Of a stretch of DNA of 64,000 nucleotides, positions 552-49,844 are shown one piece after another. Source of the stretch: a phage. Location: the NCBI GenBank assembly GCA_019566135.1, contig GCA_019566135.1_3044.1; one strand, written 5' to 3'. The position numbers were made by a program, and so were the translations under genes. The notes beneath the pieces were generated by a model that saw only the letters and a list, made by a program, of their open reading frames with translations, was not told where the DNA came from and made no database searches. Each line of letters starts with the position of its first letter. The stretch's first letter is position 1.

Positions 552-1730
552 TTAAAAGTATTTTTTAAAACTCATCATAACTTTATCATCAACATCATTA
601 TCAATCTGTGCTACAAGGTAAGATGACAGCTCTACTTCTTGCGGTGCAGATTGAACATTATCAGAATTAAGATATTCACGAATCCAAGGATATGGATGTT
701 TAACCGGAGCATCGGTAATTGGGCATGGAAGACCACACTGTTTCATACGAGATACAGTTAAGTAATCAATAAAGCTCCACATGCTATTTGTATTTAATCC
801 AGGAACATCGCCATCTTTAAATAAATGAACTGCCCAATCTTTTTCTTGGCGGTTAACTTCCATGAAAATATCAACTGCTTCTTGTTCACACTCTTTGGCA
901 ATTTTAACCCATTCATCACCATCAGTGCCAAGTTGAAGTTGACGAATAATATATTGTGTACCTTTAAGATGAAGCTGCTCATCACGTGCAATGAACTTCA
1001 TAATCTTGGCATTACCTTCCATGATTTCCATGTTCTTATGGAAGTTAAAGGTACATGCGAAAGATACATAAAAACGAATAGCTTCCAATGCGTTGATTAC
1101 GTGCAGGCAGAGGTAAAGAGAGCGCATTAGTTCACGTTTCCAATACATTTCATGCTCTATGGCATCTTCAATAACGTCTTCGTCTGCATTAATTTCTTTT
1201 TGGTATTCGATATCAGCTTTAGCGTTTTCCCAATAACGAGTTTTAATCAGAACATCATCATAATAACGTCCAATGGATTCAGCACGTTTCATAATAGCTT
1301 CATCTAATACAATTTCATCAAATACTTTCGATGGATCAGTATAAAGATTTCGCATGATATGTGTATATGAACGGCTGTGAATAGTTTCACTAAAAGTCCA
1401 CGTAGCAACCCATGTATCAAGGCTTGGGTCTGAAATTAATGACATAAGTACAGCAGACGGCGCACGACCCTGAATGCTATCCAAAAGTGATTGATACTTC
1501 AGGTTATTAGTAAAAATATTTTGCTGATACTGAGGAAGCTTATTAAATTGCGCAGCATCCATCATTAAGTTTACTTCTTCAGGACGCCAGAAAAATGACA
1601 ACTGCTTTTCGGTTAAATCTTCAAAAACTTTATGACGTTGAATATCATAACGCGCAATACCAAGACCTGAACCAAAAAACATAGGTTCTTTTAAAACATC
1701 AACTGGATTTGTATTAAAAACTGTGCTCAT
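552..1730 (-). CDS. nrdB: Ribonucleotide reductase small subunit, uninterrupted (no intron)
   Basis: 392-aa ORF with R2-type ferritin-like motifs; position downstream of nrdA. Confidence 0.9.
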   Translation of the reverse strand: MSTVFNTNPVDVLKEPMFFGSGLGIARYDIQRHKVFEDLTEKQLSFFWRPEEVNLMMDAAQFNKLPQYQQNIFTNNLKYQSLLDSIQGRAPSAVLMSLISDPSLDTWVATWTFSETIHSRSYTHIMRNLYTDPSKVFDEIVLDEAIMKRAESIGRYYDDVLIKTRYWENAKADIEYQKEINADEDVIEDAIEHEMYWKRELMRSLYLCLHVINALEAIRFYVSFACTFNFHKNMEIMEGNAKIMKFIARDEQLHLKGTQYIIRQLQLGTDGDEWVKIAKECEQEAVDIFMEVNRQEKDWAVHLFKDGDVPGLNTNSMWSFIDYLTVSRMKQCGLPCPITDAPVKHPYPWIREYLNSDNVQSAPQEVELSSYLVAQIDNDVDDKVMMSFKKYF

Positions 1731-1781
1731 AAATTTTCCACTTAGTTAATAGATAGTGACTCGTCCATGAGTCAAATTATA

Positions 1782-4046
1782 TCATAATTTACAGGATGAA
1801 CAATCTTCAGCTTTTGGAGTTTCTATTTCATAATCATCAGTACCAGAACCATCACGGGTATTATGATAATAGAAATTTTTTCCGCCAAAATACCAAAAAT
1901 ACAAAAGGTCATCAATCATTATTGACATTGGAACCTTTCCTTTTGGAAAAATCTGTGGGTCATAATATGTATTCGCCGAAGCTGATTGACAAACCCATTT
2001 CAGCATAATAGCTACCTGCGTAAGATAAGGTTTATTACCTTTCTTAGCTAATTTCCATGTATAATCATAGAGGTCTATGTTATGCTCAATATTGGGCACG
2101 ACTTGATTAAAGGAGCCCTCTTTTGATTCTTTAACAGAGACTGGTCCACGTGGAGGCTCGATACCGTTTGTACTGTTAGAAACTTGGGAAGATGACTCAC
2201 ATGGCATAAGTGCTGATAATGTGCTATTACGGATGCCAAAGAGCTTAAGGTCTTCCCGCAGCGACGACCAGTCACAAACGTATTTTGGAGCTGCGATTTG
2301 GTCAATCTTTTTATTGTACCAGTCGATAGGTAATTCGCCTCGAGACCAACGAGTGTCTGAATAATATTCGCAAGGTCCTTTTTCTTTGGCGAGCTTAATG
2401 GATGCTTTAATGAGTCCATACTGTAATCTCTCAAATAGTTCATGTGTTAAATCGTTAGCATCTTCATAAGAAGCAAAGTTACTTGCCAGCCAAGCTGCAT
2501 AGTTAGTAACACCTACACCGAGGTTACGACGCTTTTTAGCTTTTTCTGCTTCAGGAACTGGATATCCTTGGTAATCCAAAAGATTATCAAGAGCACGAAC
2601 TTGGACTTCTGCCAATTCATTAATTTTATCTTGGTCTTGCCAGTCAAAATTATCCAGTACGAATGCAGAGAGAGTACACAATCCAATTTCAGCATCAGGA
2701 CTATTCACATCATTTGTTGGAATAGCAATTTCACAGCACAAGTTACTCTGACGAATAGGTGCCTTTTCACGAATAAACGGAGTATAGTTATTCGTATTAT
2801 CAATGAACTGCACATAAATCCTTGCTGTTCCTGAACGTTCAGTCATGAGCAATTCAAATAGTTCACGGGCTTTAATACGCTTTTTACGAATATTAGGGTC
2901 TTTTTCTGCTGCTTCGTATAATTCACGGAAACGGTCTTGGTCTTTAAAATAAGAATAATACAGCTCTCCACCCATTTCATGTGGACTGAACAAAGTAATG
3001 TAATCGTTCTTTCCGAATCGTTCCATCATCAAATCATTCAGCTGAACGCCATAATCCATATGACGAATGCGGTTTTCTTCTACGCCTTTGTTATTTTTCA
3101 AAACGAGAAGATTTTCAACTTCCAAATGCCAAATAGGATAATAAGCAGTAGCAGCGCCGCCACGAATTCCACCCTGTGAGCATGATTTAACAGCAGTCTG
3201 AAAATGTTTCCAAAAAGGAATAACACCAGTATGGCGTACTTCACCCATGCCAATCTTAGAACCTTCGGCACGAATCATACCAACGTTAATACCAATTCCA
3301 GCACGTTTGGAGATATATTCAACAATTGAAGCGGAAGCCTTATTGATAGACTTTAATGAATCACCTGCCTCAATAACAACGCATGAACTAAACTGTCGAG
3401 TCGGAGTACGGCAACCAGCCATAATAGGAGTTGGCAATGAAATCTGTCGAGTAGATACTGCTTCATAAAAACGAATAACGTGTTTTAATCTATCAACAGG
3501 TTCATCTTGATGCAATGCCATTCCAATAGTCATAAATGCAAACTGTGGAGTTTCATAAATTTGACCGGTGGTTTTATCTTTAACTAGATATTTTTCTTTT
3601 AATTGCATCGCCCCGGAATAAGTAAATTCCATATCCCGCTCGTGCTTAATTTTTGATTCTAAAAATGTAATTTCTTCTGCTGAATATTTTGACAATAATT
3701 CAGGGTCGTATTTACCTTCATTTACGCAATAAGAAATATGGTCAATAAATGAACGTGGTTCATATTGTCCGTAAACATGCTTACGAAGAGCGAACATTAA
3801 ACAACGTGCAGCTACATATTGATAATCAGGCTCTTCAACCGAAATAGAATTCGCAGCAGCCTTAATGACAATAGTCTGAATATCATCAGTTGTCATTCCA
3901 TCACGGAGATAAGATTTAATATTTTCATATAATTCATAAGGATCTACTGATGTTCCTTCAGCTGCCCAAGATAAAACTTTAATAATTTTTTGTGGGTCAA
4001 AGCTCTGAGAAACACCACTACTTTTGATAACATTAATTAATTGCAT
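1782..4046 (-). CDS. nrdA: Ribonucleotide reductase large subunit
   Basis: 754 aa, same length as T4 NrdA; class I RNR motifs; C-terminal CSSCKL. Confidence 0.93.
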   Translation of the reverse strand: MQLINVIKSSGVSQSFDPQKIIKVLSWAAEGTSVDPYELYENIKSYLRDGMTTDDIQTIVIKAAANSISVEEPDYQYVAARCLMFALRKHVYGQYEPRSFIDHISYCVNEGKYDPELLSKYSAEEITFLESKIKHERDMEFTYSGAMQLKEKYLVKDKTTGQIYETPQFAFMTIGMALHQDEPVDRLKHVIRFYEAVSTRQISLPTPIMAGCRTPTRQFSSCVVIEAGDSLKSINKASASIVEYISKRAGIGINVGMIRAEGSKIGMGEVRHTGVIPFWKHFQTAVKSCSQGGIRGGAATAYYPIWHLEVENLLVLKNNKGVEENRIRHMDYGVQLNDLMMERFGKNDYITLFSPHEMGGELYYSYFKDQDRFRELYEAAEKDPNIRKKRIKARELFELLMTERSGTARIYVQFIDNTNNYTPFIREKAPIRQSNLCCEIAIPTNDVNSPDAEIGLCTLSAFVLDNFDWQDQDKINELAEVQVRALDNLLDYQGYPVPEAEKAKKRRNLGVGVTNYAAWLASNFASYEDANDLTHELFERLQYGLIKASIKLAKEKGPCEYYSDTRWSRGELPIDWYNKKIDQIAAPKYVCDWSSLREDLKLFGIRNSTLSALMPCESSSQVSNSTNGIEPPRGPVSVKESKEGSFNQVVPNIEHNIDLYDYTWKLAKKGNKPYLTQVAIMLKWVCQSASANTYYDPQIFPKGKVPMSIMIDDLLYFWYFGGKNFYYHNTRDGSGTDDYEIETPKAEDCSSCKL

Positions 4047-4600: not shown

Positions 4601-5461
4601 TTACACCGCCATTTTTCCTTTAATTGGCAGATGAGATACATAGTTGTTAAGAACAAAATTATGAGGCTTTGCAAATTGACTCAACCAAAATACCTGCGAT
4701 TCTGTGTCCCATTCATCAAATTCATCTGGAAATTTTAATTGTAATTCGCATAAATCCATAGGTTCACGACGTAAAATTTCTTTACATTGTTCTACGTGAT
4801 TCATATAGATATGAGTATTACCACCAGAAAATATCAAATCTCCAGGAATAAGATTACACATTTTAGCTACAATATGAACTAACGTAGCATATGATGCAAT
4901 ATTAAATGGAAGACCGAGGAAAACATCTACCGAACGTTGATACCACTGCAAATCTAAATAGCCATTACGCACATTAAACTGATAGAACATATGACAAGGC
5001 GGTAATGCCATATATTTAAGTTCAGCTGGATTCCACGCAGAAACAATTTGACGCCTATCATTTGGCAGTTTTTTAATACGATCAATAACTTTTATAATTT
5101 GATCTACACCGCCAAAATCACGCCACTGTTTTCCATAAATTGGACCAAGTTCACCGCTATGGTATCCTAAATCTTTTGCTTGATTTTCGTAATTTTCATC
5201 CCAGACTGTTTTGCCTTGAATTAATGAATCATGTTGAATTAATCGCAAATCATTGACATTTGTGCTTCCTGATAAAAACCATATTAGCTCAGCAATGCAT
5301 GCATTCCAGGCGAGCTTCTTAGTTGTTACTGCAGGAAAACCTTTGGTTAAATCCCAACGCAATTTAGTACCGAACAAAGCAATTGTTCCTGTGCCCGTTC
5401 GGTCATCGGTTTCATAGCCATTTTCAAAAATGTCTTTAATTAAATCTTGGTATTGTTTCAT
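4601..5461 (-). CDS. td: Thymidylate synthase, uninterrupted (no group I intron, no I-TevI)
   Basis: 286 aa; [17 protein letters not shown]... matches T4 Td as remembered; one contiguous frame. Confidence 0.95.
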
Positions 5462-5506: not shown

Positions 5507-6699
<1,193 letters not shown>

Positions 6700-8442: not shown

Positions 8443-9348
8443 TTAAAGGTCATTCAAAAGGTCATCCAGGTCCGTGTCATCAGCACTAGATGAACTACCA
8501 GAGCTTGAGCTCATAAAATCATCTTCAGTTTTTGTATTGAAGTCATCAACATTGAATGCATCCAAATCATCAGCAACTTTATCAGCTTTCTTAGCAGCAG
8601 TTGCAGCGGCACCGCCCATCACAGCAGTTCCCATAACTTGACCGAATTTAGTATTCAGTTCTTCAAATGATTTGAATTTATCTTTAGAAGTCATTTCAGA
8701 AAGGTCAACCATTTGTTCGAACAGTTCTTTCTGGAAAGATTCATCATCAATGTTTGGAATCGCAGATTGATTCAGGAATTTAGATTCGTCGTAGTTACTA
8801 AAACCAGAAACTTGTTTAACTTTCAGTACAAAGTTAGCACCTTCCCACGGACAAGTTACATCAACCGGAGTTTCACCCATTTCAACATCAACTGCAATCA
8901 TTGCATTGATTTTATCCCAGATTTTCTTACCGAAACGGTATTTAAATACTTTACCTTCATTTTCTGGAGCAGCTGGGTCTTTTACAACAAGAATATTAGC
9001 CCAGTAAGAAGTTTTACGTTTAACAAGACTGTACTCTTTATTGTCAGTGTTGTACAGATCATTTTTACTGATGTATTGACATACTGGGCAAGAATCGTAA
9101 TCACCATGGGTAGATGAACATGTTTCAATATACCATTTACCATTTTTCTTGAAACCGTGATTTACAAGAATTGCGAATGGTGCTTGTTCATCATTTTTAG
9201 ACGGAAGAAAACGAATTACTGCTTGACCGTTACCCGCATTATCGAGTTTCAGTTTCCACTCGCCTTTATCTTCAGAAGAAAAACCTTTATTGCCATTCAG
9301 TTTAGCCATTTGCGCAGCAAGTTCAGCAGTAGATTTACGTTTAAACAT
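8443..9348 (-). CDS. 32: Single-stranded DNA-binding protein gp32
   Basis: 301 aa; [23 protein letters not shown]... matches T4 gp32 as remembered; acidic C-terminus. Confidence 0.95.
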
Positions 9349-9405
9349 TTTATTTCCTTTTTAACTTAATTTAATTAACAGTTGGTGCTATGACACTTTA
9401 CCTCA
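9349..9405 (-). promoter_or_regulatory. Gene 32 translational operator (A/U-rich UUAAA-repeat leader with upstream structured region)
   Basis: Leader reads ...GUGUCAUAGCACCAACUGUUAAUUAAAUUAAGUUAAAAAGGAAAUAAAAUG, close to the T4 operator as I recall it. Confidence 0.5.
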
Positions 9406-10035
9406 TAGCTGGCATAATTTGCAATACTCTGGGTCTTCGAGAGGTATCCAACCTGAGTTGAAATACTTTACCATCGATTTAGCAGTTGTATCAGTTATAT
9501 TTATATTACCTTTAACTCTTCGCCATCCAGGAGTTTTACCGTACAGATTAGAGGATAATAATAACACATAATTCTCGTAAGCAATATGAGATAATTTCCA
9601 AGACTCTATATTAGCTCGTGATGTTTTCCAAGGTCTAAAATCGTCACGGTTCATATAATTAGCCAATCTCATATGCTCTCTAACTTCCGGGTCTTTGGCT
9701 GGATGAGTTTCACCACTCACACCAAATCCACCACCAGCATATACCAGATTAAAATAGTCTGGATTATCTCTGGCATTTACTTCAAGTTGGTATTTTCGTT
9801 CTGCTTCAATAACATCCAAGTCATCATCAATTTGAATTATTTTAACGCTCGGTTTTTGAAGCATTAGCGCATTCAAAAATCTTTTTTGTTTACATGAGCT
9901 CCAGTATTCCTTTCCGGAAGAGTCATATATTATTCCGTTCTCAAATGAGCAATTTAATTTACTACCGATATAGTAGTACGGTGGAGTCTTATTTTTGACA
10001 CGGTCTTCAAATGTAAACCAATATACTATATTCAT
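9403..10035 (-). CDS. GIY-YIG-type homing-endonuclease-like protein (SegG-like by position between 32 and 59)
   Basis: 210 aa; N-terminal IVYWFTF...YYYIGSK resembles a GIY...YIG motif; sits where I recall T4 segG. Confidence 0.55.
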   Translation of the reverse strand: MNIVYWFTFEDRVKNKTPPYYYIGSKLNCSFENGIIYDSSGKEYWSSCKQKRFLNALMLQKPSVKIIQIDDDLDVIEAERKYQLEVNARDNPDYFNLVYAGGGFGVSGETHPAKDPEVREHMRLANYMNRDDFRPWKTSRANIESWKLSHIAYENYVLLLSSNLYGKTPGWRRVKGNINITDTTAKSMVKYFNSGWIPLEDPEYCKLCQL

Positions 10036-10036
10036 A

Positions 10037-10690
10037 TCAATACTTGCAAGATTTCACAGTTTCAATGAAAACACTTTTAGCTTTCTGTGAATCAATATTT
10101 AAAATTTTTCTATAAGCCTTTAACTTTATAGAATAATTATTCCAGACTAAATTATCAGTCTGTTCATCATGTTTATCAATTATATTTAAAAACGAATCAA
10201 GCAAGATAAACGTCTCAAACGAAATTATATTCGATTGAAGTAGTTTAAAAATATAACTTGATTGAACTTTTGGATTATACTCAAAGATTTCTTTAAAAGC
10301 AGAAACTTCAACTTTTTTACTAAAATAGTAAATATTGCGAATATCTTCTTCAAACTTAAATTTAATTTGTTTTAAGCGTCCGATATATTCACGATAAAAC
10401 ACAAGTGCATCAGCGTCAGAGATGTCACCAATCCAAGCATCTTGGTTAGCAACAAGATTGCTTATAAAAATTAAAGCAAGTTCCTTTAATTTATATTTTT
10501 CTGATAACTTCTGGAAAAAATACTTATCCCTTCGCTTTTGATAAGCGGCATCAGACACCCGCATGCACCAATTATACTTAATAACATCATACTTTCCATT
10601 CATATGTTGTTTTATCATTAAGTATAATTTATAAACTGATTTACCATCAATATATCTTTCACCACCAGCAGGCATGCGGAGTTTAATCAT
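10037..10690 (-). CDS. 59: Helicase loader gp59
   Basis: 217 aa; MIKLRMPAGGERYIDGKSVYKLYLMIKQHMNGKYD... matches T4 gp59. Confidence 0.92.
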   Translation of the reverse strand: MIKLRMPAGGERYIDGKSVYKLYLMIKQHMNGKYDVIKYNWCMRVSDAAYQKRRDKYFFQKLSEKYKLKELALIFISNLVANQDAWIGDISDADALVFYREYIGRLKQIKFKFEEDIRNIYYFSKKVEVSAFKEIFEYNPKVQSSYIFKLLQSNIISFETFILLDSFLNIIDKHDEQTDNLVWNNYSIKLKAYRKILNIDSQKAKSVFIETVKSCKY

Positions 10691-16180: not shown

Positions 16181-17296
16181 ATGGAAAAATTTATGGCAGA
16201 GTTTGGACAAGGATATGTCCAAACGCCATTTTTATCGGAAAGCAATTCAGTAAGATATAAAATAAGCATAGCGGGTTCTTGCCCGCTTTCTACAGCAGGA
16301 CCATACGTTAAATTTCAGGATAATCCTGTAGGAAGTCAAACATTTAGCGCAGGCCTTCATTTAAGAGTTTTTGACCCTTCCACCGGAGCATTAGTTGATA
16401 GTAAGTCATATGCTTTTTCTACTTCAAATGATACTACATCTGCTGCCTTTGTTAGTTTCATGAATTCTTTTTCAAGCAATAGACTTGTTGCTATATTAAC
16501 TAACGGAAAGGTTAATTTTCCTCCTGAAGTAGTATCTTGGTTAAGAACAGCAGGAACGTCTGCTTTTCCATCTGACTCTGTATTGTCAAGATTCGACGTA
16601 TCATATGCTGCTTTTTATACTTCTTCTAAAAGAGCTATTGCATTAGAGCATGTTAAACTGAGTAATAGAAAAAGCACAGATGATTATCAAACTATTTTAG
16701 ATGTTGTATTTGACAGTTTAGAAGACGTCGGAGCTACCGGGTTTCCAAGAAGAACGTATGAAAGCGTTGAGCAATTTATGTCAGCGGTTGGTGGAACTAA
16801 TAACGAAATTGCCCGTCTACCTACAGCATCTGCAATAAGTAAACTTTCTGACTATAATTTAATTCCTGGAGATGTTCTTTATCTTAAAGCACAACTATAT
16901 GCTGACGCTGATTTATTAGCGTTGGGAACTACTAATATTTCAATTCGTTTTTATAATGCGTCGAATGGATATATTTCCTCGACACAAGCTGAGTTTACTG
17001 GACAGGCTGGGTCTTGGGAATTAAAGGAAGACTATGTAGTTGTTCCAGAAAATGCAGTTGGATTTACGATATATGCACAGAGAACTGCTCAAGCGGGACA
17101 AGGCGGTATGCGAAATTTAAGCTTTTCTGAAGTATCAAGAAATGGCGGAATTTCAAAACCTGCTGAATTTGGCGTCAATGGTATTCGTGTTAATTATATT
17201 TGTGAATCTGCTTCACCTCCGGATATAATGGTACTTCCTACGCAAGCATCGTCTAAAACTGGTAAAGTGTTTGGGCAAGAATTTAGAGAAGTATAA
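16181..17296 (+). CDS. 35: Long tail fibre hinge protein gp35
   Basis: 371 aa; immediately after gene 34. Confidence 0.88.
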   Translation: MEKFMAEFGQGYVQTPFLSESNSVRYKISIAGSCPLSTAGPYVKFQDNPVGSQTFSAGLHLRVFDPSTGALVDSKSYAFSTSNDTTSAAFVSFMNSFSSNRLVAILTNGKVNFPPEVVSWLRTAGTSAFPSDSVLSRFDVSYAAFYTSSKRAIALEHVKLSNRKSTDDYQTILDVVFDSLEDVGATGFPRRTYESVEQFMSAVGGTNNEIARLPTASAISKLSDYNLIPGDVLYLKAQLYADADLLALGTTNISIRFYNASNGYISSTQAEFTGQAGSWELKEDYVVVPENAVGFTIYAQRTAQAGQGGMRNLSFSEVSRNGGISKPAEFGVNGIRVNYICESASPPDIMVLPTQASSKTGKVFGQEFREV

Positions 17297-17301
17297 ATTG
17301 A

Positions 17302-17327
17302 GGGAGCCTTCGGGTTCCCTTTTTCTT
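17302..17327 (+). terminator. Terminator-like hairpin after gene 35
   Basis: GGGAGCC-UUCG-GGUUCCC followed by UUUUUCUUU. Confidence 0.55.
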
Positions 17328-17335
17328 TATAAATA
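17328..17335 (+). promoter_or_regulatory. Late promoter TATAAATA for genes 36-37
   Basis: Exact TATAAATA 23 nt upstream of the gene 36 ATG. Confidence 0.7.
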
Positions 17336-17358
17336 CTATTAAAATAAAGGGGCATACA

Positions 17359-18018
17359 ATGGCTGATTTAAAAGTAGGTTCAACAACCGGAGGCTCTGTC
17401 ATTTGGCATCAAGGAAATTTTCCATTGAATCCAGCCGGTGACGATGTACTCTATAAATCATTTAAAATATATTCAGAATATAATAAACCGCAGGCAGCTG
17501 ATAACGATTTCGTTTCTAAAGCTAATGGTGGTACTTATTTAAATAAGGTAATTTTTAATAAAGGAATGACTGTCCCTGGCGCAGGGTCAGGTGACAATGG
17601 TATTTTTGCTGGTCCTGGTGATAACGCCACGTATGATACTACAAATATAGATATTGTTTCGTGGTACGGTATTGGCTTTAAATCATCACAAGGTTCAGCA
17701 GCCCGAACTGTTGTAATTAATACACGTAATGGTGATATTAACACAAAAGGTGTTGTATCAGCATCAGGTCAAGTAAGAAGTGATGCGGCTGCTCCTATAG
17801 CAGCAAATGACCTTACTAGAAAGGACTACGTTGATAGAGCAATAAATACTGTTACAGCAAATGCGGATTCTAGAGTTTTACGCAAAGGTGATACCATGAC
17901 AGGTAATTTAACAGCGCCAAACTTTTTCTCACAGAATCCTGCGTCTCAACCTTCTCACGTTCCGCGATTTGATCAAATCGTAATTAAGGATTCTGTTCAA
18001 GATTTCGGCTATTATTAA
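17359..18018 (+). CDS. 36: Long tail fibre distal connector gp36
   Basis: 219 aa; position and size. Confidence 0.88.
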   Translation: MADLKVGSTTGGSVIWHQGNFPLNPAGDDVLYKSFKIYSEYNKPQAADNDFVSKANGGTYLNKVIFNKGMTVPGAGSGDNGIFAGPGDNATYDTTNIDIVSWYGIGFKSSQGSAARTVVINTRNGDINTKGVVSASGQVRSDAAAPIAANDLTRKDYVDRAINTVTANADSRVLRKGDTMTGNLTAPNFFSQNPASQPSHVPRFDQIVIKDSVQDFGYY

Positions 18019-18026
18019 GAGGACTT

Positions 18027-21000
18027 ATGGCTACTTTAAAACAAATACAATTTAAAAGAAGCAAAACCGCAGGCGCGCGTCCTGCTGCTTCAGTATTAGC
18101 CGAAGGTGAATTGGCTATAAACTTAAAAGATAGAACAATTTTTACTAAAGATGATTCAGGAAATATCATTGACTTGAGCATTTCCACTGGCGGCAATATC
18201 AGTGGAAATATCACTCAAACTGGTGATTATTTACAAAACGGCACGTATAATCTTAATGGAAACCAGTTTGTTTATGCAGGAAAATACATTGAATTTTTAC
18301 CTAAAACCGCTGGTAATGGTGCGTGGGCAAATCAACACCTCAATAAAGCTCCTATCTTTACAGATTTAAGTTCAACTACTTCTGTTTCAGAATATCATCC
18401 ACTCATTAAGCAGCGTTATAAAGATGGGACTTTTTCTGTTGGTACGTTAGTAAACGAAGGAAGTTTTAAAATTCATTATATTAATGAATCGGGAACTTCA
18501 AAATATTGGACATTTCGTAGAGATGGTGGATTTGTTGTTGATACAGGAAGTTTGACAGTAACAGATGGAAATATTTCTGCCTCTGGTAATATTAATTCAG
18601 CTACTGGGGTAGTTTCTGCTCCGCAGATTAATACAAAGACTATAGTTTTTGATACAAAAGCGTTCGGACAATATGATTCGCAGTCATTAGTTCAATATGT
18701 TTATCCTGGAACAGGTGAAGCAAACGGAATCAATTACCTTCGCAAATTCCGTGCTAAATCTGGTGGTACAATTTATCATGAATTAGCTTCTGCGCAAACC
18801 GGAAAAAGTGATGAACTTTCTTGGTGGACTGGTAATACAGCGGTTAATAAACAAATGGGCCTTCGCAATGATGGGTCTTTAGTACTACGACGTTCACTTG
18901 CAATTGGTACAATTACAACAGATGAAAACATCAATAACTACGGTTCCACTGGAGCAATGGGCGAATGTTATATAGTTATTGGTGATGCATCAACAGGTTT
19001 ATCATACAAAAAAACTGGGGTATATGACTTAGTTGCTAGTGGTCTTTCTGTAGCATCTATTACTCCTGATAGTTTCCGTAGTACGCGCAAAGCGATTTTT
19101 GGACGCTCGGAAGACCAAGGCGGTACGTGGCTTCTTCCTGGTCAAAACTCATCTCTTCTTTCAGTTCGTACTGAAGCTGACCAAAACAATAATGGAGATG
19201 GTCAGACACATATTGGCTATAATAGTAATGGTAAATTTTATCATTATTTTAGAGGCAGAGGAAGAATGGCCATTGGAATGGCCGAAGGACTTATTGTTGA
19301 ACCAGGAATTTTAGATATTAAAACTGGTTCAAATACATTAAGTTTGCGTGCTGATGGTACCGTCGCTTCTGTTCAAACATTAAAGCTTAATAATGGATTA
19401 TATTTTAATAGCGATGGAACTAACGCTTCTCTAATTTTTAAAGCAGCTTCAGGTATTGATGGTACTAAACAAATACTTTGGGAAGGTGGTACTCGTGCTG
19501 GGCAGAATAAGAGCTATGTAACTGCTAAAGCTTGGGGAAATTCATTTAATTCATCTGGCGATCGTAATCGTGAAACGGTTTTTGAAGTATCAGATGGACA
19601 AGGATATTATTTTTATGCTCAACGCGTAGCTCCTGCACCAGGTTCAACAACTGGTGCAGTTCAATTTAGAGTTGCCGGAGCATTATTAACTTCTGGCGGT
19701 ATTACATCATCTGGTTCTATTGTTACTGAATCTAGCTTAGTTGCAAATAATGGATTATCTGTAAATGGACAAGCTAAATTTGGTGGAACAGCAAATGCAT
19801 TAAGAATTTGGAATGCCGAATATGGCGCCATATTCCGTCGCTCAGAAACAGCATTGCACATTATTCCTACTCTTAAAGACCAAGGAGAAAATGGTGAAAT
19901 AGGTAATCTTCGTCCATTGAGCATCTCACTTAACAACGGTATGGTTCAAATGCGCCATTCTGTCACGTTAGGTGATGATGGTGCAGGCGGTAATATGGTG
20001 ACGGTTGATAATGATTCTAAAGTTATAGTAATGACGACTAATAGCCGTATTAGTCCTAACTTCCGTATGCAAATTGGACAGTCGTCTTATATTGATGTGG
20101 AATGTACTGATGCTGTGAGACCTGCTGGAGCCGGTTCTTTTGCTTCACAGAATAACGAAAACGTTCGCGCTCCGTTCTATATGAATATTGATAGAACAGA
20201 TACAAGCACTTATGTTCCTATTGTGAAACAAAGATACGTGCAAAATAATAGTTGCTATTCTATTGGTACTTTAATTAATGGTGGTAACTTTAGAGTTCAT
20301 TATCATGAAGGTGGCGATGGCGGTTCTACAGGCGCAATTATAAAAGATTTAGGATGGGAATTTAATAAAAACGGTGATTTTTATTCTCCTGGTAAATTAG
20401 GCGCTGGAAATATTAGAATAGGTACTGATGGTAATATCACGGGTGGTTCTGGTAACTTTGCTAACTTGAATACAACTTTAAACCGTAAAGTTAATTCTGG
20501 TTTTATTGCTTATGGAGCAACGGCAGGTTGGTACAAGTTTGCAACAGTAACAATGCCTCAAGCTACATCAACTGTTTCAATTACAGTCACCGGTGGAAAT
20601 GGATTTAATTCTGGGTCATTTAATCAGTGTGCAATTTCTGAAATTGTTCTTCGTACAGGAAACAATACTCCTAAAGGATTAAATGCTGTTCTATATAGAA
20701 GAGGACTAAATTCATTTAGAGATATTGCTTGGGTTAATACATCTGGTGATACATATGACATTTATGTTAATATGGGAACATATGCTAATCAGTTGATATT
20801 TAACTATAGTTCTGTTGATAACGCCACAGTTCAAATTATTGGCGCATTCAGCTCAGCTCAAAATCCTGTTGATGCATTGCCAGAAACATATGTTAAAGGT
20901 CAGGTAGCAGATGTATTGACTAACTTAGTTGATTCTGGAAAAACGAAGCGTTTTGTTGCTGAATCTGAAATAGCTGTTAATAATCAAACTGGATTACGTA

Positions 21001-21890
21001 TTACGAGTAACGGTGATAAATCTGGTTCAAATTCAGTATTATTCAGAAATGATGGCGGTAGTTTTTATATTCTTTTAACAGATAAAAACGCAGCAGATGG
21101 AAATACGACTGCTACAGAAGGAGATTGGAATGGTAAACGTCCTTTCCAAATTAATATGACTTCTGGTGAAGTAACATTTGGAAATAATATTAATATTTCT
21201 GGAAACGGAAGCATTAATTGGACAAAAGCCAGAGCAAACCCTAGAAATATGAGAATATTTCATGCAGGTGATGCTTCTCGTGGTAACCGTATTGAAATCG
21301 CAGATGATACTAACTATATTGCTTACTTTGAAAAAACTCCAGGTGGAGCTAACCGCTTTGTAGTAAATAATGCTACTGTAGCTGGTGTTAATCAAATGAA
21401 TTCATTTGGTATTAACATCAATAACGCGCTTGGTGGAAATAGTATAACATTTGGTGATAGCGATACTGGTATTAAGCAAAATGGCGATGGATTATTAGAC
21501 ATATATGCGAACAACGTACAAGTATTCCGTTTCCAAAACGGTGATTTGTACTCATACAAAAATATAAATGCTCCAAACGTTTATATTCGTTCTGATATTC
21601 GTTTAAAATCCAACTTCAAACCTATCGAAAATGCGCTTGATAAAGTTGAAAAACTTAACGGTGTCATTTACGATAAAGCTGAATATATCGGTGGAGAGGC
21701 AATTGAAACTGAAGCGGGTATTGTGGCTCAAACGTTACAAGACGTTTTACCAGAAGCTGTCCGTGAAACAGAAGACAGTAAGGGTAATAAAATACTCACT
21801 GTTTCTTCTCAAGCCCAGATTGCTCTTCTGGTTGAAGCTGTGAAAACACTTTCTGCTCGTGTAAAAGAACTTGAATCTAAACTTATGTAA
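18027..21890 (+). CDS. 37: Long tail fibre distal subunit gp37, T2-type with C-terminal intramolecular-chaperone-like domain
   Basis: 1287 aa; C-terminal ~100 aa (SDIRLKSNFKPIENALDKVEKLNGVIYDKAEY...) resembles autocleaving chaperone domains. Confidence 0.88.
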   Translation: MATLKQIQFKRSKTAGARPAASVLAEGELAINLKDRTIFTKDDSGNIIDLSISTGGNISGNITQTGDYLQNGTYNLNGNQFVYAGKYIEFLPKTAGNGAWANQHLNKAPIFTDLSSTTSVSEYHPLIKQRYKDGTFSVGTLVNEGSFKIHYINESGTSKYWTFRRDGGFVVDTGSLTVTDGNISASGNINSATGVVSAPQINTKTIVFDTKAFGQYDSQSLVQYVYPGTGEANGINYLRKFRAKSGGTIYHELASAQTGKSDELSWWTGNTAVNKQMGLRNDGSLVLRRSLAIGTITTDENINNYGSTGAMGECYIVIGDASTGLSYKKTGVYDLVASGLSVASITPDSFRSTRKAIFGRSEDQGGTWLLPGQNSSLLSVRTEADQNNNGDGQTHIGYNSNGKFYHYFRGRGRMAIGMAEGLIVEPGILDIKTGSNTLSLRADGTVASVQTLKLNNGLYFNSDGTNASLIFKAASGIDGTKQILWEGGTRAGQNKSYVTAKAWGNSFNSSGDRNRETVFEVSDGQGYYFYAQRVAPAPGSTTGAVQFRVAGALLTSGGITSSGSIVTESSLVANNGLSVNGQAKFGGTANALRIWNAEYGAIFRRSETALHIIPTLKDQGENGEIGNLRPLSISLNNGMVQMRHSVTLGDDGAGGNMVTVDNDSKVIVMTTNSRISPNFRMQIGQSSYIDVECTDAVRPAGAGSFASQNNENVRAPFYMNIDRTDTSTYVPIVKQRYVQNNSCYSIGTLINGGNFRVHYHEGGDGGSTGAIIKDLGWEFNKNGDFYSPGKLGAGNIRIGTDGNITGGSGNFANLNTTLNRKVNSGFIAYGATAGWYKFATVTMPQATSTVSITVTGGNGFNSGSFNQCAISEIVLRTGNNTPKGLNAVLYRRGLNSFRDIAWVNTSGDTYDIYVNMGTYANQLIFNYSSVDNATVQIIGAFSSAQNPVDALPETYVKGQVADVLTNLVDSGKTKRFVAESEIAVNNQTGLRITSNGDKSGSNSVLFRNDGGSFYILLTDKNAADGNTTATEGDWNGKRPFQINMTSGEVTFGNNINISGNGSINWTKARANPRNMRIFHAGDASRGNRIEIADDTNYIAYFEKTPGGANRFVVNNATVAGVNQMNSFGININNALGGNSITFGDSDTGIKQNGDGLLDIYANNVQVFRFQNGDLYSYKNINAPNVYIRSDIRLKSNFKPIENALDKVEKLNGVIYDKAEYIGGEAIETEAGIVAQTLQDVLPEAVRETEDSKGNKILTVSSQAQIALLVEAVKTLSARVKELESKLM

Positions 21891-21891
21891 A

Positions 21892-21909
21892 AGAGGGCTT
21901 CGGCCCTCT
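21892..21909 (+). other. Perfect stem-loop AGAGGGC-UUCG-GCCCUCU between genes 37 and 38
   Basis: 7-bp stem with UUCG loop; no U-tract; sits just before the gene 38 SD. Confidence 0.5.
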
Positions 21910-21920
21910 AAGGATTTTTA

Positions 21921-22712
21921 ATGGCAATTGTAGGTGTTCCTGGCTGGATTGGTGAATCTGCCGTGAATGAAACTGGACAACGCTGGATGGATGCTGCAAT
22001 GAAAGCAGTTCGCGTTTCAGTTCCTGGCTGGATGAGTTCAATGGCTGGACAATCTAAAGAAGTATATTATAGTGTTGGTGCTAGTAATTCTTATAATAAA
22101 GACACACTAATAAATTGGATAAAAGCTCAAGGCAGTACTCCTGTTGTTATTACTATTACAGGAAATATTGTTTCTCAATCTACTGGTGTTCCATGCTTAG
22201 ATTTTCCTAGCTCATTAACTAATGCGTATGTTACCTTAAATATTAATAGCGGGGTTCATGTATTAGGTCGGGGAGGAAATGGCGGAAGTAACTCTGCTGG
22301 TGGAGCAGGAGGAACTGCAATAAATAACGGAATTGGAACTCGTTTAAGAATAAACAATAACGGTATTATTGGTGGCGGTGGCGGTGGCGGCGCTGGTGCT
22401 AGATACCATCCTTTCCCTCAAATGGATATGATATTTGGTGGCGGCGGAGGTCGTCCATTTGGCGCTGCTGGCGCAGCAGGAGGTGGCGCAGCGGCAGCAT
22501 CTGCTGGTACAATTTCTGCTCCTGGTAAAGGTACTGTTTCTGGGGTTCACTATGGAGGAAATGGTGGAGATTTGGGAGCTGCTGGCAAATCTTCATATAT
22601 TCAAGGTGGTACTGGAGGAACTGTTCACTCGGGTGGTGCTGCGGGTAAAGCTGTTACTGGTAATGCTCCAACTTGGACTAAAGTTGGTACAATATACGGT
22701 TCAAGAGTATAA
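21921..22712 (+). CDS. 38: Receptor-recognising adhesin gp38, T2-type with glycine-rich motifs
   Basis: 263 aa; poly-Gly/Ala segments (GGGGGGGAGA, GGGGRPFGAAGAAGGGAAAA) separated by variable segments. Confidence 0.85.
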   Translation: MAIVGVPGWIGESAVNETGQRWMDAAMKAVRVSVPGWMSSMAGQSKEVYYSVGASNSYNKDTLINWIKAQGSTPVVITITGNIVSQSTGVPCLDFPSSLTNAYVTLNINSGVHVLGRGGNGGSNSAGGAGGTAINNGIGTRLRINNNGIIGGGGGGGAGARYHPFPQMDMIFGGGGGRPFGAAGAAGGGAAAASAGTISAPGKGTVSGVHYGGNGGDLGAAGKSSYIQGGTGGTVHSGGAAGKAVTGNAPTWTKVGTIYGSRV

Positions 22713-34282: not shown

Positions 34283-36103
34283 CTACTGGCTCATCCATTC
34301 TTTACGAAGGTCAGCATTATCTCCCATGAGCATTTCAAAAAGCTCTTTCCAGTTCTCAGGAAGTTTAACAACATCATATACTGGATTTTGAATCATTTCA
34401 CGATATTCAGATTTTTCCAAAGAGCCAAGTCCTTTAATATAACGGATGCTATGTTTAGGTAGAGCATCTTTGGCACTCTCATATTCAGCGACTGTATAAA
34501 ACCATTCTTGTTTTTTACCGACCTGAGCGATGATTACAGGAGTTTTGACAAAGCGAATTCGTCCTTGCTCAAACAATTCTGGCCAATTACTAAAAAATCC
34601 GAGCAGAGAAGGATAAATGCTTCCTAGACCATCATGGTCAGCATCAGTCATAATAGCAATATTGCGATAATTCATGTTTTCAGCTTTTTCACCAAGAACT
34701 AATCCAGTGATTGCGCAAATATCAAATAGTTCTTTGTTTTTAAGCATATCTGCATAAGACATACCCCAACTGTTGAGAACTTTACCACGCAATGGATAAC
34801 CACCATGAAGTTCTTTATCACGAACATCAATAAGATATCCGATAGCAGAATCACCCTCAGTCAAGAAAAGAGTAGTATCAGCATCTTTACCGCACAGATT
34901 AGCTTTAATATGTTTATGAACCTTTGCCTTAGAAGCCTTTTTAGCTGCTTTAGTTTCAGCTGCTTTTTCTGCTGCCAATTTACGAGCTAGTGCAGCTTCA
35001 ATAATTGGCATTAAAATTGCTTCATTATTTAAAATAGCGCGTGAAATCTTTTTAGCGTCAAGTTGAATATGACTACGGATTTCACCAAATGGAGAAGTCA
35101 AACGCTCTTTAGTTTGAGAATCAAATCGCATGTTTTTCATATCACGAACAAACATAACGATAGTCAAACATTCTTTAACGCGTGCTTTAGTTACATCAAT
35201 TTTGAACTTACGTTTGATTTGTGGAATAAGGTCTTCACAAATATCATCCATAACACAGTCAATGTGATGGCCACCATTCTTAGTATGAATGTTATTGACG
35301 TATGTTAATTGACGAAATCCATCCGGTGAACGACCAACCGCAATAGAACAATTTTCTTGTTCTTGAACAATAGCATGTTCATCATACTGTAGTGCATATT
35401 TCTTAAAATTGCCCTGAACCTTTTTACCATTAAAGGTAAATTGAATATCAGGATAAACAACAGCAAGTGTCTGGAGACGATCTAGTGTAATGTCAAGATA
35501 AACTTGGGACAGCTCATTAGTTTCAAATGACATAAAATCTGGAATGAAAGTAACACGAGTTCCTTTCCATTTTCCAGGAATAGTTTCCCAGGATTTATTT
35601 TCCATGCCATTTGAACAACGAACTACAATATTATTTTGACCATCGCCAGTTTCACCGACAAACATCACAGAAAAAATGTTAGTTAAACTAGAACCAACAC
35701 CATTCATACCACCGGTGACACGTTCTTTATCATCACCAAAGTTACCACCCGCTTTTGGAATAGTCCAAGCAGCAACTGGACCAGGAATTTCTTCACCGGT
35801 AGGTGTTTTAACCATCGCTTGTGGAATACCACGACCGTTATCTTCAACTGTTACTTGATTGTTTTTAATAGTAACATTAATTTTATTTGCGAATTTAAAC
35901 TTAGTACGAATACCTTCATCTACTGAGTTATCGATAATTTCATCAATAAGCTTAACAAGACCAGGTACATACTGAACACTTTCCCATTTACCAAACAGAA
36001 AGCGCTCATGCATTTCATTAGCAGAAGAGCCAATGTACATGCCACTACGCTTTTTGATATGTTCAATATCGCTCAGAATTTTAATTTCATTCTTAATCAT
36101 CAC
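34283..36103 (-). CDS. 39: DNA topoisomerase II large subunit, unsplit (gene 39 and gene 60 portions in one ORF)
   Basis: 606 aa contiguous GyrB-like ATPase plus TOPRIM; no split, no mobA, no bypass gap. Confidence 0.9.
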   Translation of the reverse strand: MMIKNEIKILSDIEHIKKRSGMYIGSSANEMHERFLFGKWESVQYVPGLVKLIDEIIDNSVDEGIRTKFKFANKINVTIKNNQVTVEDNGRGIPQAMVKTPTGEEIPGPVAAWTIPKAGGNFGDDKERVTGGMNGVGSSLTNIFSVMFVGETGDGQNNIVVRCSNGMENKSWETIPGKWKGTRVTFIPDFMSFETNELSQVYLDITLDRLQTLAVVYPDIQFTFNGKKVQGNFKKYALQYDEHAIVQEQENCSIAVGRSPDGFRQLTYVNNIHTKNGGHHIDCVMDDICEDLIPQIKRKFKIDVTKARVKECLTIVMFVRDMKNMRFDSQTKERLTSPFGEIRSHIQLDAKKISRAILNNEAILMPIIEAALARKLAAEKAAETKAAKKASKAKVHKHIKANLCGKDADTTLFLTEGDSAIGYLIDVRDKELHGGYPLRGKVLNSWGMSYADMLKNKELFDICAITGLVLGEKAENMNYRNIAIMTDADHDGLGSIYPSLLGFFSNWPELFEQGRIRFVKTPVIIAQVGKKQEWFYTVAEYESAKDALPKHSIRYIKGLGSLEKSEYREMIQNPVYDVVKLPENWKELFEMLMGDNADLRKEWMSQ

Positions 36104-38019: not shown

Positions 38020-38439
38020 TTATGCTAAAGCTGCTTCGCACCATTTTTTAATTTGGAATTCAGGAACTACCATGAACTGGCCTGCAAAAACAATATTGTA
38101 GAGCTTGACACCATCTTCTACCCAACGGTCCGAAATAAAACCAGCGACTTGATTCGTTGTCCATGGAGTTCCATCTGTTGCCGCCGCAATTGTGAATTTA
38201 TGGTCTTTTACAACTAAAACTGAAGAACAAAGTTTCCATTTAAATGCGCTTTCTTCTGGCTCAATGAACTGACTTGAGACATAACCAATGTTACCATCAG
38301 CGTCACGAACTTTAACCTCGTTACGACCAAAAACTGGATCACTTACAGAAAGAACTTCAACCAGCTTTCCTGCAACTTTAGAACGAGAAGCAACGGATAC
38401 ATATACGTAATCACCAGTAGAGAGATTTGCAATATTCAT
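38020..38439 (-). CDS. MotB-like protein, paralog A (139 aa)
   Basis: N-terminal KOW-like GDYVYVSVASRSKVAGKLVEV; C-terminal WVEDGVKLYNIVFAGQF shared with B and C. Confidence 0.5.
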   Translation of the reverse strand: MNIANLSTGDYVYVSVASRSKVAGKLVEVLSVSDPVFGRNEVKVRDADGNIGYVSSQFIEPEESAFKWKLCSSVLVVKDHKFTIAAATDGTPWTTNQVAGFISDRWVEDGVKLYNIVFAGQFMVVPEFQIKKWCEAALA

Positions 38440-38448
38440 AATAATTCC

Positions 38449-38922
38449 TTAAGCTTTACGAGGAGAAGCATAACGAGTGATTTCAGATTCTTCAACAACC
38501 CGGAAGTCACCTAAGAATACGATATTGTAGAGCTTTTCACCATCTTCAACCCATTGGTCTGTGATGAAGCCACACATCCTATCAGTTTTACTTGGACCAG
38601 CGAAATCATCAATATAATCGAATTCTTCATCAGTTACAAATTCAACGCCTTTACACAACGCCCATTTAAATTGTGTATTAGACTCAGTGGATTCAACTTC
38701 TTCAACAGAAGCAAAATGAGAGCTAACACGAGTTTCCAGAAATTTAGGACTTACGTAAGCGTACTGAGTTTCAGTTTTTCCAGAACCAGGAATGATTCGA
38801 ACTTTAACTTCTTTAACACGACCAGTACCATTAGTACGAAGTCCTACCACTTCAACTAGACGACCTGCAGCTTTAGAACGAGATGCAGACGATACACGCT
38901 TAATTTCACCGATAGTAATCAT
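38449..38922 (-). CDS. MotB-like protein, paralog B (157 aa from ATG 38922)
   Basis: SASRSKAAGRLVEV and QWVEDGEKLYNIVFLGDF; ATG 38922 downstream of the early promoter. Confidence 0.5.
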   Translation of the reverse strand: MITIGEIKRVSSASRSKAAGRLVEVVGLRTNGTGRVKEVKVRIIPGSGKTETQYAYVSPKFLETRVSSHFASVEEVESTESNTQFKWALCKGVEFVTDEEFDYIDDFAGPSKTDRMCGFITDQWVEDGEKLYNIVFLGDFRVVEESEITRYASPRKA

Positions 38923-38965
38923 AATTTTTCTCTCTTTGTTGTTAAGATTTATACTCCGCAGGACC

Positions 38966-38995
38966 ATTATACTCTGGTCCCAAGAGTTTGTAAAC
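38966..38995 (-). promoter_or_regulatory. Early promoter (-35 GTTTAC 38995..38990, -10 TATAAT 38971..38966)
   Basis: 18-nt spacer; the TATAAT sits inside a GGACCA/TGGTCC inverted repeat. Confidence 0.55.
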
Positions 38996-47628: not shown

Positions 47629-47838
47629 TTAAATTACATGATTATTTATAATAAATTCTCGCGGAACGTTAAAATATCCGATTTTAGTTAATATAACAAC
47701 ATCACCGTTAATAATTACCGGAGAATAATCTTCTGGAGTGTTAAATTTCCAATGGGATCTAATATTATATCCATCAGAACCAAATGCTCGAGTAGCCGGT
47801 CTCCCGGCTTTTTGCCACGCGTAGAAATCAAATTTCAT
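47629..47838 (-). CDS. Hypothetical protein (69 aa; soc.1 position)
   Basis: ORF. Confidence 0.5.
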   Translation of the reverse strand: MKFDFYAWQKAGRPATRAFGSDGYNIRSHWKFNTPEDYSPVIINGDVVILTKIGYFNVPREFIINNHVI

Positions 47839-48029
47839 TTTGAATGCTCTATAATTAATTTTAAAGCTTCTTCACTGACAAAAATTTCGTCAGGACCTTC
47901 TATAACTTCAACCATACGAAGTTGATTAGTTAAGAGCTCACATACGAGCTCCTTGTTATAATCTTTAAATAGCTGGTCAATACGTTTCTTATGGGCTTTC
48001 TTAAGCTGACGCTTATTTAAACGAGCCAT
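47835..48029 (-). CDS. Hypothetical protein (64 aa; soc.2 position)
   Basis: ORF. Confidence 0.5.
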   Translation of the reverse strand: MARLNKRQLKKAHKKRIDQLFKDYNKELVCELLTNQLRMVEVIEGPDEIFVSEEALKLIIEHSK

Positions 48030-48547
48030 TAATAACCTCGGTCTTGACGAGCGAAGTTTTCAGCATTTTTCAGGTAATAAAGTTTAAAGATTTCTTCAGC
48101 CGACATTCCAAGAGCAATAAATTTATTCATGAAAAAGTGAAATTGGTCAATCAGTTCAAATTTAATTTCAAGCTGATCTTCAGGAGATAAGTCTTGAATT
48201 TTCTTGGATTGCATTTCAGAATAACGTTTCTTCCAAGGTTTCCATACAGCAGAAGCTTCTTTTTCACCATTACTCATACCACCAAGAGAAGTATATAGCT
48301 CGCGAGTTTCGTCTGCGATATAATCGTCTTGGTTTCGCAGCCAAGCAAGAACTTCTCCTGCAGTTTCAAGTGAATCAGGATGACGATTTGTTTCTGGTTT
48401 ATCATTAGCCAAACGAATCTGTAAATGCCGCTGCATGTCAAGCATAACCTGCAATGGGTCAATACTGTGCATAATATACTCAGCATATGCACGATTTGCT
48501 TTATCAACACCTTCGATCAAATGAGCACATTCATTAAAGTGAGCCAT
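48029..48547 (-). CDS. 56: dCTPase/dUTPase gp56 (MazG-like), 172 aa from ATG 48547
   Basis: MAHFNECAHLIEGVDKANRAYAEY...; AAAGGA SD; track's longer ORF is an upstream read-through. Confidence 0.85.
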   Translation of the reverse strand: MAHFNECAHLIEGVDKANRAYAEYIMHSIDPLQVMLDMQRHLQIRLANDKPETNRHPDSLETAGEVLAWLRNQDDYIADETRELYTSLGGMSNGEKEASAVWKPWKKRYSEMQSKKIQDLSPEDQLEIKFELIDQFHFFMNKFIALGMSAEEIFKLYYLKNAENFARQDRGY

Positions 48548-48618
48548 TATTTTTCCTTTCAATTCATGGGTTAGTAGATTAATTATACAATAAATATATA
48601 AAGCAATAAGGAGGACAT

Positions 48619-48819
48619 ATGGTACAAAAATTAATGGCACTTGTTAATGCCATAAAAGGTAATAAAAAACGTATAGCTTTTACTATTTCTGCTATGGTAG
48701 GAATTTTACTCTGGAACTTTATTTTATCACCAATTGCAATTGCGCATGGTGTTAATATTCCAGTAGTTACTCTTGATACATTTGTAGATTTAGCATTTGC
48801 TTTAGTTGGGTTGATTTAA
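48619..48819 (+). CDS. Small membrane protein on the opposite strand (66 aa)
   Basis: Strong SD AAGGAGG 5 nt before ATG 48619; two hydrophobic segments; converges on gene 61, overlapping its stop by 4 nt. Confidence 0.55.
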   Translation: MVQKLMALVNAIKGNKKRIAFTISAMVGILLWNFILSPIAIAHGVNIPVVTLDTFVDLAFALVGLI

Positions 48820-49844
48820 ATCTTAGCATATTTAGATAGCCGCATTTTAGCCATCAACCCCTGGGCAATATTATTTTTCATATATTCCATAATTTGTTCA
48901 GGGGTTGCACCTTCCTTTCTAATCATATCATTAACATCTTTAGATTTCCAGGGAGATTTATCCCAAAACATAATCCTTTCTCCTGCATCAACTAATTTAG
49001 TCATTCGTTTGATAGTGTCAGGGTGACGAGGTTCATTATCTAAAACCCACACTCGTCTATCTTTAAATGGAACAACTTCTAGGTCTAATTGACCACCCGT
49101 AATAGCTATACCATTTTCAATAAAAAGTGAATCTATAGGTCCTTCTAGAACATATACATCACCATCTTTAACTCGTTCAACACCGTAAATTTTTGTTGCC
49201 TCAGGATAAGCTTTAATGGTGATATATTTTTGAGGAGCATCTTTCTTTAATGCACGTCCTTGAAAAGACTCAGCTTTTCCATTAGCATTATAAATTGGAA
49301 TAACAAGACGAGGCTCAGAAATTTCCTTTTTGTATGTTCCCGGTGCTATACTATTAACTAATTTAGGCCATTCGGTTGTAAACCAAAGATATTTCCATTT
49401 ATCCTTTGGAATACAACGAGCTTTTACATATTTTATAATTGGATGGTCTTCCGCCAGTTTATCTAATCTAACACATGACGGAAGAGATTTAATTATTTTC
49501 TTCTCAGGTTGCTTAGGAAGTTCTTTAGGTTTTTCTACTGGACGACTTTTACCTTTTTCTTTTCTTATTTCAAAGATATACTCACGATATAAATCAGGTT
49601 CAAACTCCTTTAAATATATTCCGATTGGTGCATGATAATTACAGTTATAACAATGAATATTTCCTTCATTATTATCACCATAATACCATCCACGAGCTTT
49701 ATTCTGGTCGGTTTTTGAATCTCCACAAACTGGACATCTAAACCGCAATTTAAAAGTTGAACTATTATTTACTTGTGTGAATTTAGGTAAATGAGCTAAT
49801 GCACGGTATGCAAACTCATTATCAATCCAAGGTATTGATGACAT
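48816..49844 (-). CDS. 61: DNA primase gp61
   Basis: 342 aa (same as T4 gp61); N-terminal zinc ribbon CPVCGDS...CYNC. Confidence 0.93.
   Translation of the reverse strand: MSSIPWIDNEFAYRALAHLPKFTQVNNSSTFKLRFRCPVCGDSKTDQNKARGWYYGDNNEGNIHCYNCNYHAPIGIYLKEFEPDLYREYIFEIRKEKGKSRPVEKPKELPKQPEKKIIKSLPSCVRLDKLAEDHPIIKYVKARCIPKDKWKYLWFTTEWPKLVNSIAPGTYKKEISEPRLVIPIYNANGKAESFQGRALKKDAPQKYITIKAYPEATKIYGVERVKDGDVYVLEGPIDSLFIENGIAITGGQLDLEVVPFKDRRVWVLDNEPRHPDTIKRMTKLVDAGERIMFWDKSPWKSKDVNDMIRKEGATPEQIMEYMKNNIAQGLMAKMRLSKYAKI

Follow-up and report, generated by a model that had tools for sequence, protein, structure and literature searches.

segG, a free-standing homing endonuclease gene with a divergent GIY-YIG domain, between genes 59 and 32 of a T4-like phage

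The 64,000-nt stretch of phage DNA analysed here (GenBank assembly GCA_019566135.1; hereafter the window) carries a 210-codon ORF lodged between genes 59 and 32, which raises the question of what this ORF encodes, whether it is mobile and how it relates to the gene 32 sequences next to it. An earlier note made from the sequence alone had read it as a SegG-like gene for a GIY-YIG homing endonuclease that may cut gene 32 of relatives lacking it. The locus is composed as follows:

9403..10035, minus strand: segG CDS, ATG start, 210 aa, stop included (ORF list)
10037..10690, minus strand: gene 59 (helicase loader), upstream neighbour, stop included (annotated T4 record)
8443..9348, minus strand: gene 32 (ssDNA-binding protein), downstream neighbour and published SegG target gene (PMC2988022) (annotated T4 record)

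The ORF, whose translation opens with MNIVYWFTFEDRVKNKTPPYYYIGSK, is free-standing (outside any intron) and oriented as genes 59 and 32. Its coordinates and the two spacings given in the earlier note are exact when compared with the ORF list and the sequence: between the gene 59 stop and the segG ATG there is a single base (10036), reading TGA-T-ATG, and a 54-nt spacer (9349..9402) runs from the segG stop to the gene 32 ATG.

The proposed likeness to SegG proved to be near identity, with 209 of 210 aa shared with T4 SegG and a sole difference, E206K, that is common to RB3, EO1, Maryam and Pu-Krd-SF3. At the DNA level the gene is 99.5-100% identical to segG of T4 (99.5%), RB3, Maryam and others, and the 2.3-kb region spanning gene 32, the ORF and gene 59 is 98.5-99.1% identical to many Tequatrovirus genomes including T4, in which the ORF is annotated as segG. 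The ORF also matches phrog_7504, labelled "homing endonuclease", with E=8.5e-134. T4 SegG (formerly ORF 32.1) occupies the same locus, likewise overlaps the gene 32 pseudoknot and shares the internal promoter motifs that are described below. In a review of T4 mobile elements, segG is listed as a free-standing GIY-YIG endonuclease gene between 32 and 59 with demonstrated mobility and gene 32 as its target (PMC2988022), and SegG has been identified as the cause of T2 gene 32 exclusion when T4 and T2 are crossed (PMC2330249, summarising Liu et al. 2003). The reading of the ORF as a nuclease likely to cut gene 32 of segG-less relatives agrees with both sources. A coordinate for the SegG cleavage site was not found in the open literature searched. 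The gene, its target, its role in T2/T4 marker exclusion, the embedded gene 32 promoters and the pseudoknot overlap are thus all published. Taken as a whole, the data leave us with high confidence that the ORF is segG, that it belongs with the free-standing homing endonuclease genes of the Seg group of T4, and that it would home via cleavage of gene 32.

Profile searches gave a divided answer as to the nature of the encoded protein. Neither Pfam-A nor NCBIfam returned a match to SegG even at E<=1, no PDB chain was found by phmmer or by a 21-sequence SegG family profile, precomputed Pfam domains are absent in 29 of 29 SegG homologues, and PF01541 (GIY-YIG) matched neither SegG nor any of the 115 relatives scanned. 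These results, together with the lack of a conserved Arg at the canonical position (see below), would favour the view that the protein is not a GIY-YIG nuclease and has some other function, its IVY...YIG likeness being fortuitous. Controls run with T4 I-TevI, SegA, SegF, MobE and MobB indicated, however, that a Pfam miss is uninformative for Seg proteins, because PF01541 detected I-TevI and SegA but missed SegF, a homing endonuclease proven by experiment to be of the GIY-YIG type. Among PHROGs, phrog_314, which includes I-TevI, SegA and SegF, matches the ORF with E=1.1e-7 (residues 13-205 on profile positions 184-394); residues 1-244 of I-TevI align to positions 177-389 of the same profile, and YIG22-24 of SegG falls in register with YVG17-19 of I-TevI. 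Part of this score may be due to the C-terminal region of SegG, because the HNH enzyme MobE also matches the distal part of the profile. Alignment by hhalign of the SegG family with I-TevI, SegA and SegF yielded a weak local match (probability 3.7%) in which N96 is paired with N90 of I-TevI. The profile search that the earlier note had named as a possible refutation thus found no GIY-YIG domain with Pfam, NCBIfam or PDB, the profile match being to the PHROG that SegG shares with I-TevI, SegA and SegF.

Further evidence came from a predicted (AF2) model of the protein and from residue conservation, which was counted over 115 diverse SegG relatives. The protein is composed of two domains, a divergent GIY-YIG nuclease domain and a helical C-terminal domain, located as follows:

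9721..10035, minus strand: N-terminal divergent GIY-YIG catalytic domain (residues 1-105)
9406..9699, minus strand: helical C-terminal domain (residues about 113-210), which presumably binds DNA

In the model, the N-terminal domain displays the GIY-YIG alpha/beta fold, with IVY5 on strand 3-8 and Y22-I23-G24 on strand 21-26, so that the GIY and YIG tyrosines sit on adjacent beta strands. Both methods of structural comparison place I-TevI first, Foldseek doing so with an E-value of 0.8, which is not significant. The motif residues are almost invariant in relatives (Y5 114/115, Y22 114/115, G24 115/115, E79 115/115 and N96 114/115). E79, which lies on helix 75-85, would be the equivalent of the catalytic E75 of I-TevI, and this Glu and N96 occur at the expected spacing when compared with E75 and N90 of I-TevI, in which the Asn follows the Glu by ca. 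15 residues. The catalytic Arg and Glu had both been singled out for checking in the earlier note. The Arg that follows YIG in the I-TevI catalytic domain (PDB 1LN0; canonical Arg27) has no clearly conserved counterpart in the SegG family; R52 varies, and the conserved candidates are R12 (95/115) and K26 (113/115). The active site may have been remodelled, in that an Arg is not conserved at the canonical position and Lys26, Tyr44 (114/115) and Ser47 (113/115) are near-invariant instead, with Arg12 being frequent.

SegG further differs from I-TevI by the longer interval between its GIY and YIG tyrosines, and by being free-standing whereas I-TevI is intron-encoded and has a DNA-binding region with a Zn finger and a HTH. 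It is distinguished from T4 SegF and SegA by the 16 residues that separate these tyrosines and by a beta-hairpin insertion. With SegF and SegA it shares an N-terminal GIY-YIG domain followed by a C-terminal DNA-binding region (a presumed one in SegG), the match to phrog_314, and an intergenic site associated with "intronless homing", in which cleavage occurs away from the gene; their targets are gene 56 for SegF and uvsX for SegA as compared to gene 32 for SegG, and beyond the motifs no pairwise or profile similarity to SegG is detectable. Overall, the N-terminal half of SegG is a divergent GIY-YIG domain, with support for its fold and for all but one of the five motif residues, the exception being the Arg. 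A fortuitous likeness is hardly credible when set against the structural match, the conserved Glu and Asn at their expected spacing, the in-register phrog_314 alignment and the published biochemistry of T4 SegG (PMC2988022, PMC2330249).

The wider family also speaks against such a coincidence. A search with a profile of the N-terminal 105 residues against 1.84 billion representatives retrieved at least 295 clusters at 50% identity, from which the 115 relatives were scanned further. NUMOD3 modules, typical of homing endonucleases, occur in 74 of these and seven weakly match PF19835 (SegE_GIY-YIG). Relatives having a SegG-type N-terminal domain carry varied C-terminal modules, namely a C2HC zinc finger, NUMOD3 or a terminal HTH. 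In seven proteins (P0014, P0016, P0020, P0022, P0025, P0028 and P0029) the domain is joined to differing C-terminal modules that include a CxxC...HxxxC zinc finger, and P0028 and P0029 have an additional HTH-like segment at their terminus. These differing fusions point to domain shuffling within the SegG family, a modular N- and C-terminal build being usual for GIY-YIG homing endonucleases, and a DNA-binding role for the C-terminal half of SegG appears plausible. In other T4-like genera, the gp32.1-type endonucleases have diverged from SegG in sequence: those of VR7, VR5, PSD2002, DK-13 and NC-G, annotated as "homing endonuclease" or "32.1", retain partial DNA similarity to segG, the gene adjoining gene 59 in VR7, DK-13 and NC-G, and the VR5 and PSD2002 homologues being 59-60% identical to the SegG protein.

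Whether segG is accompanied by other mobile elements was addressed by comparing the window with T4 (MT984581) by local BLAST and ORF lists. The window is co-linear with T4 from nrdB round to gene 45.2, and the absences listed in the earlier note were all recovered. The nrdB gene is uninterrupted (552..1730, 392 aa), the intron with I-TevIII being missing; mobE is missing from the nrdB-nrdA gap of 51 bp (1731..1781; nrdA 1782..4046); td is one ORF (4601..5461) devoid of the intron with I-TevI; gene 39 is a single 606-aa ORF (34283..36103), the gene 60 split and mobA being missing; and segF is missing as well, as is segA, the absence of which had gone unmentioned. None of the 19 window-specific ORFs, i.e. 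those having no T4 counterpart, matched an endonuclease family when searched against PHROGs, so that segG, as had been proposed, is the only homing endonuclease gene detected in the 64 kb. Another such gene might have been hidden at 5507-5878 (the td-frd interval), at 47629-48029 (where T4 has segF) or at 54893-55741 (where T4 has segA and the beta-glucosyltransferase gene), but each of these three intervals was ruled out by a non-endonuclease PHROG match. All of the other homing endonuclease genes that T4 has in this 64-kb part of the map are thus absent here.

Other differences with T4 were observed along the window. The interval 54893-55741 (minus strand) encodes a 282-aa beta-glucosyl-HMC-alpha-glucosyltransferase (phrog_842, E=1.7e-89) that replaces segA and the beta-glucosyltransferase gene of T4 and that indicates a T6-type gentiobiosyl DNA modification. 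The 123-aa ORF of unknown function at 5507-5878 (minus strand; phrog_1928) separates frd from td, two genes that directly overlap each other in T4. At 48587-48815, the interval from gene 56 (48029-48640) to gene 61 (48816-49844), the T4 dam gene (DNA adenine methyltransferase) is absent, and ca. 900 bp of T4 (16811-17711, including dam) have almost no counterpart in the window. Two tandem MotB-like paralogues (38020-38439 and 38449-38967, minus strand; phrog_1671) are found where T4 has a single motB region. Finally, at 18027-22712 (plus strand), a gene 37 highly diverged from that of T4 precedes the gene for a gp38 adhesin of T2 type that has glycine-rich repeats (phrog_2056), which makes the host-range determinants T2/T6-like rather than T4-like.

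The anatomy of the insertion was established by aligning the window and T4 with the insert-free T2 and G2540-3. The presence/absence boundaries relative to T2-type genomes are sharp. On the gene 59 side, the sequences do not differ before the stop codon; this codon is TGA in genomes with segG and TAA in those without, and in the latter it is followed by 35 bp (TGCTTATTATAAATAGATTATAATTATCTCACTGA) that hold a MotA-box-like TGCTTA, the late-promoter motif TATAAATA and TATAAT. Homology between the two types resumes at CCAGCTATGAGG, corresponding to window position 9412, 64 nt upstream of the gene 32 ATG, which implies that the last codons of segG (TGC CAG CTA TGA) extend into the pre-existing leader. 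The regulatory features that this places in or next to segG are the following:

9387..9414, minus strand: gene 32 mRNA pseudoknot (translational operator), TGCC-A-GCTATGA-GGTA-AAGTG-TCATAGC, with 9403-9414 inside segG
9349..9386, minus strand: A/U-rich stretch of the gene 32 operator that contains AATTA repeats and the Shine-Dalgarno sequence (AAGGA)
9498..9505, minus strand: TATAAATA, a T4 late-promoter motif within the segG CDS, 157 nt ahead of the gene 32 start codon (motif search)
9575..9585, minus strand: MotA-box-like TGCTTA (about 9583..9578), a middle-promoter element, inside segG (motif search)

The overlap with the gene 32 operator noticed earlier can thus be placed precisely: the last 12 nt of segG (9414..9403) form the 5' strand of stem 1, loop 1 and the 5' strand of stem 2, with the segG stop codon sitting in stem 2. 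Both this overlap and the proposal of a chimeric segG that has been lengthened into the pseudoknot of the recipient have been published before (PMC535899). Rfam holds no family for the gene 32 operator and its sole match was a chance snoRNA. In the A/U-rich part, the copy number of the AATTA pentamer (window 9362-9386 and the corresponding region of L087-L099) differs between close relatives by as many as three repeat units, whether or not segG is present, and the spacer between the Shine-Dalgarno and the ATG of gene 32 is 1 nt shorter in most genomes with segG. The middle and late promoters of gene 32 have been located within segG (PMC2988022); the motif at 9498..9505 is probably the published late promoter and, following the same source, the TGCTTA at 9575..9585 would be a middle-promoter element for gene 32.

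Of the 143 phage records in which full-length segG was found, 142 match it at >=95% identity, and 45 more records match it as diverged fragments only. Its flanks were found in 640-842 phage records, so that the gene is far from being present in all relatives, the second outcome that according to the earlier note would have refuted its reading. The 59-32 junction of two distant T4-like contigs contains other cargo, a HNH_3 endonuclease gene in one (L064, 1413-1886, plus strand; PF13392, E=2.6e-14) and a 2OG-Fe(II) oxygenase gene in the other (L082, 1190-1867, plus strand), which shows independent invasions of this junction. In one IMG/VR metagenome contig (L008, 1318-1948), the segG copy aligns in two overlapping frames (residues 1-56 and 46-210), implying a 1-nt insertion that results either from decay of the endonuclease gene or from misassembly of an A-run.

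This apparently frameshifted copy, the late-promoter and MotA-box motifs inside the ORF, the contribution of its last 12 nt to the pseudoknot and the notion that embedded promoters favour retention (PMC2988022) would all suit a different history, in which segG is an immobile remnant kept for the gene 32 promoters and the part of the operator that it contains and not for endonuclease activity. We regard this as quite unlikely, since the ORF is intact in 10 of 10 isolates carrying it with the motif residues conserved, and the protein is one residue away from the experimentally active T4 enzyme. Besides, nucleotide diversity (pi) is lower inside segG (0.009) than in its flanks (0.016-0.041), which together with the sporadic distribution of the gene suggests a recent spread.

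Linkage of segG to neighbouring sequences was assessed in 10 segG+ and 11 segG- Tequatrovirus regions, which are related genomes and phylogenetically non-independent. IMG/VR provided four close relatives, too few for linkage, and 13 GenBank phage regions were added instead. The pseudoknot haplotype TTATGCC-A-GCTATGA-GGTAAAGTG-TCATAGC occurs in 10/10 segG+ and 0/11 segG- genomes, all 11 of the latter having ACTGACC-A-GCTATGA-GGTCATACATCG-TCATAGC; stem 1 pairing is kept in both versions, with 4 bp in segG+ and 5 bp in segG-. At nt 52, 53 and 57 of gene 32 and at a GGT indel after nt 63, 8-9 of 10 segG+ genomes are T4-type while the segG- genomes are T2-type in 11/11 (10/11 at nt 57). Further into the gene, nt 227/228 are CA in 10/10 segG+ and 2/11 segG- genomes (Fisher p=2e-4), codon 76 being ACA (Thr) in 10/10 of the former and AAT/AAC (Asn) in 9/11 of the latter. 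A last feature of the locus lies here:

9057..9122, minus strand: segG-associated polymorphisms at gene 32 nt 227-292, which may lie near the site of SegG cleavage or immunity

Linkage to segG decays beyond about nt 300 of gene 32, and in gene 59 no site separates the 10 segG+ from the 11 segG- genomes. Divergence between the two groups (dxy) follows the same trend, with 0.068 in the leader, 0.037 in gene 32 nt 1-300 and 0.019 in gene 59, the latter value being equal to within-group diversity. Apparent "fixed differences" at region positions 1122-1154 were discarded as an alignment artefact in which the 35 bp of the T2 intergenic region were aligned into segG. The window has the T4-type (donor) allele at every segG-linked position. 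Co-conversion of flanking markers is thus indicated indirectly, by a linkage that is perfect for the pseudoknot haplotype and strong for gene 32 nt 52-66 and 227/228, and by its lack in gene 59. Such a one-sided tract is what would be expected of a cleavage site in the 5' third of gene 32 followed by co-conversion back to segG. It is conceivable, albeit doubtful, that the SegG-type domain constitutes a GIY-YIG subfamily of its own whose active site has been remodelled and, separately, that the neighbourhood of gene 32 codon 76 represents a natural SegG immunity polymorphism.

By analogy with the T4 literature, SegG would, in a mixed infection with a segG-less relative, cut gene 32 of the latter at a distance of some hundreds of bp from where segG is inserted; the segG-carrying genome would then serve as the repair template, and segG together with the adjoining 5' region of gene 32 would be copied into the recipient, resulting in localized marker exclusion. 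Because segG lies 1 nt from gene 59 and has no clear Shine-Dalgarno, its translation is probably coupled to that of gene 59, from upstream transcripts. Once in place, the gene may be difficult to lose, since the gene 32 promoter motifs that it contains and the location of its last four codons (stop included) in the pseudoknot would make a clean deletion costly; embedded promoters and operator overlap may thus have aided its retention.

The occurrence of segG in this phage leaves current understanding of the element unchanged and adds modestly to it. In the window, segG alone persists, together with a T4-type haplotype of the gene 32 5' region, in a phage devoid of the other T4 homing endonuclease genes of the region, and the comparison of segG+ and segG- genomes indicates that the tract linked to segG lies solely on its gene 32 side. 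Mildly new are the candidate immunity polymorphism around gene 32 codon 76 and the finding that the SegG-type domain, which has no recognisable canonical Arg, is invisible to Pfam and NCBIfam. That these resources do not recognise the SegG nuclease family matters for the automated annotation of homing endonucleases.
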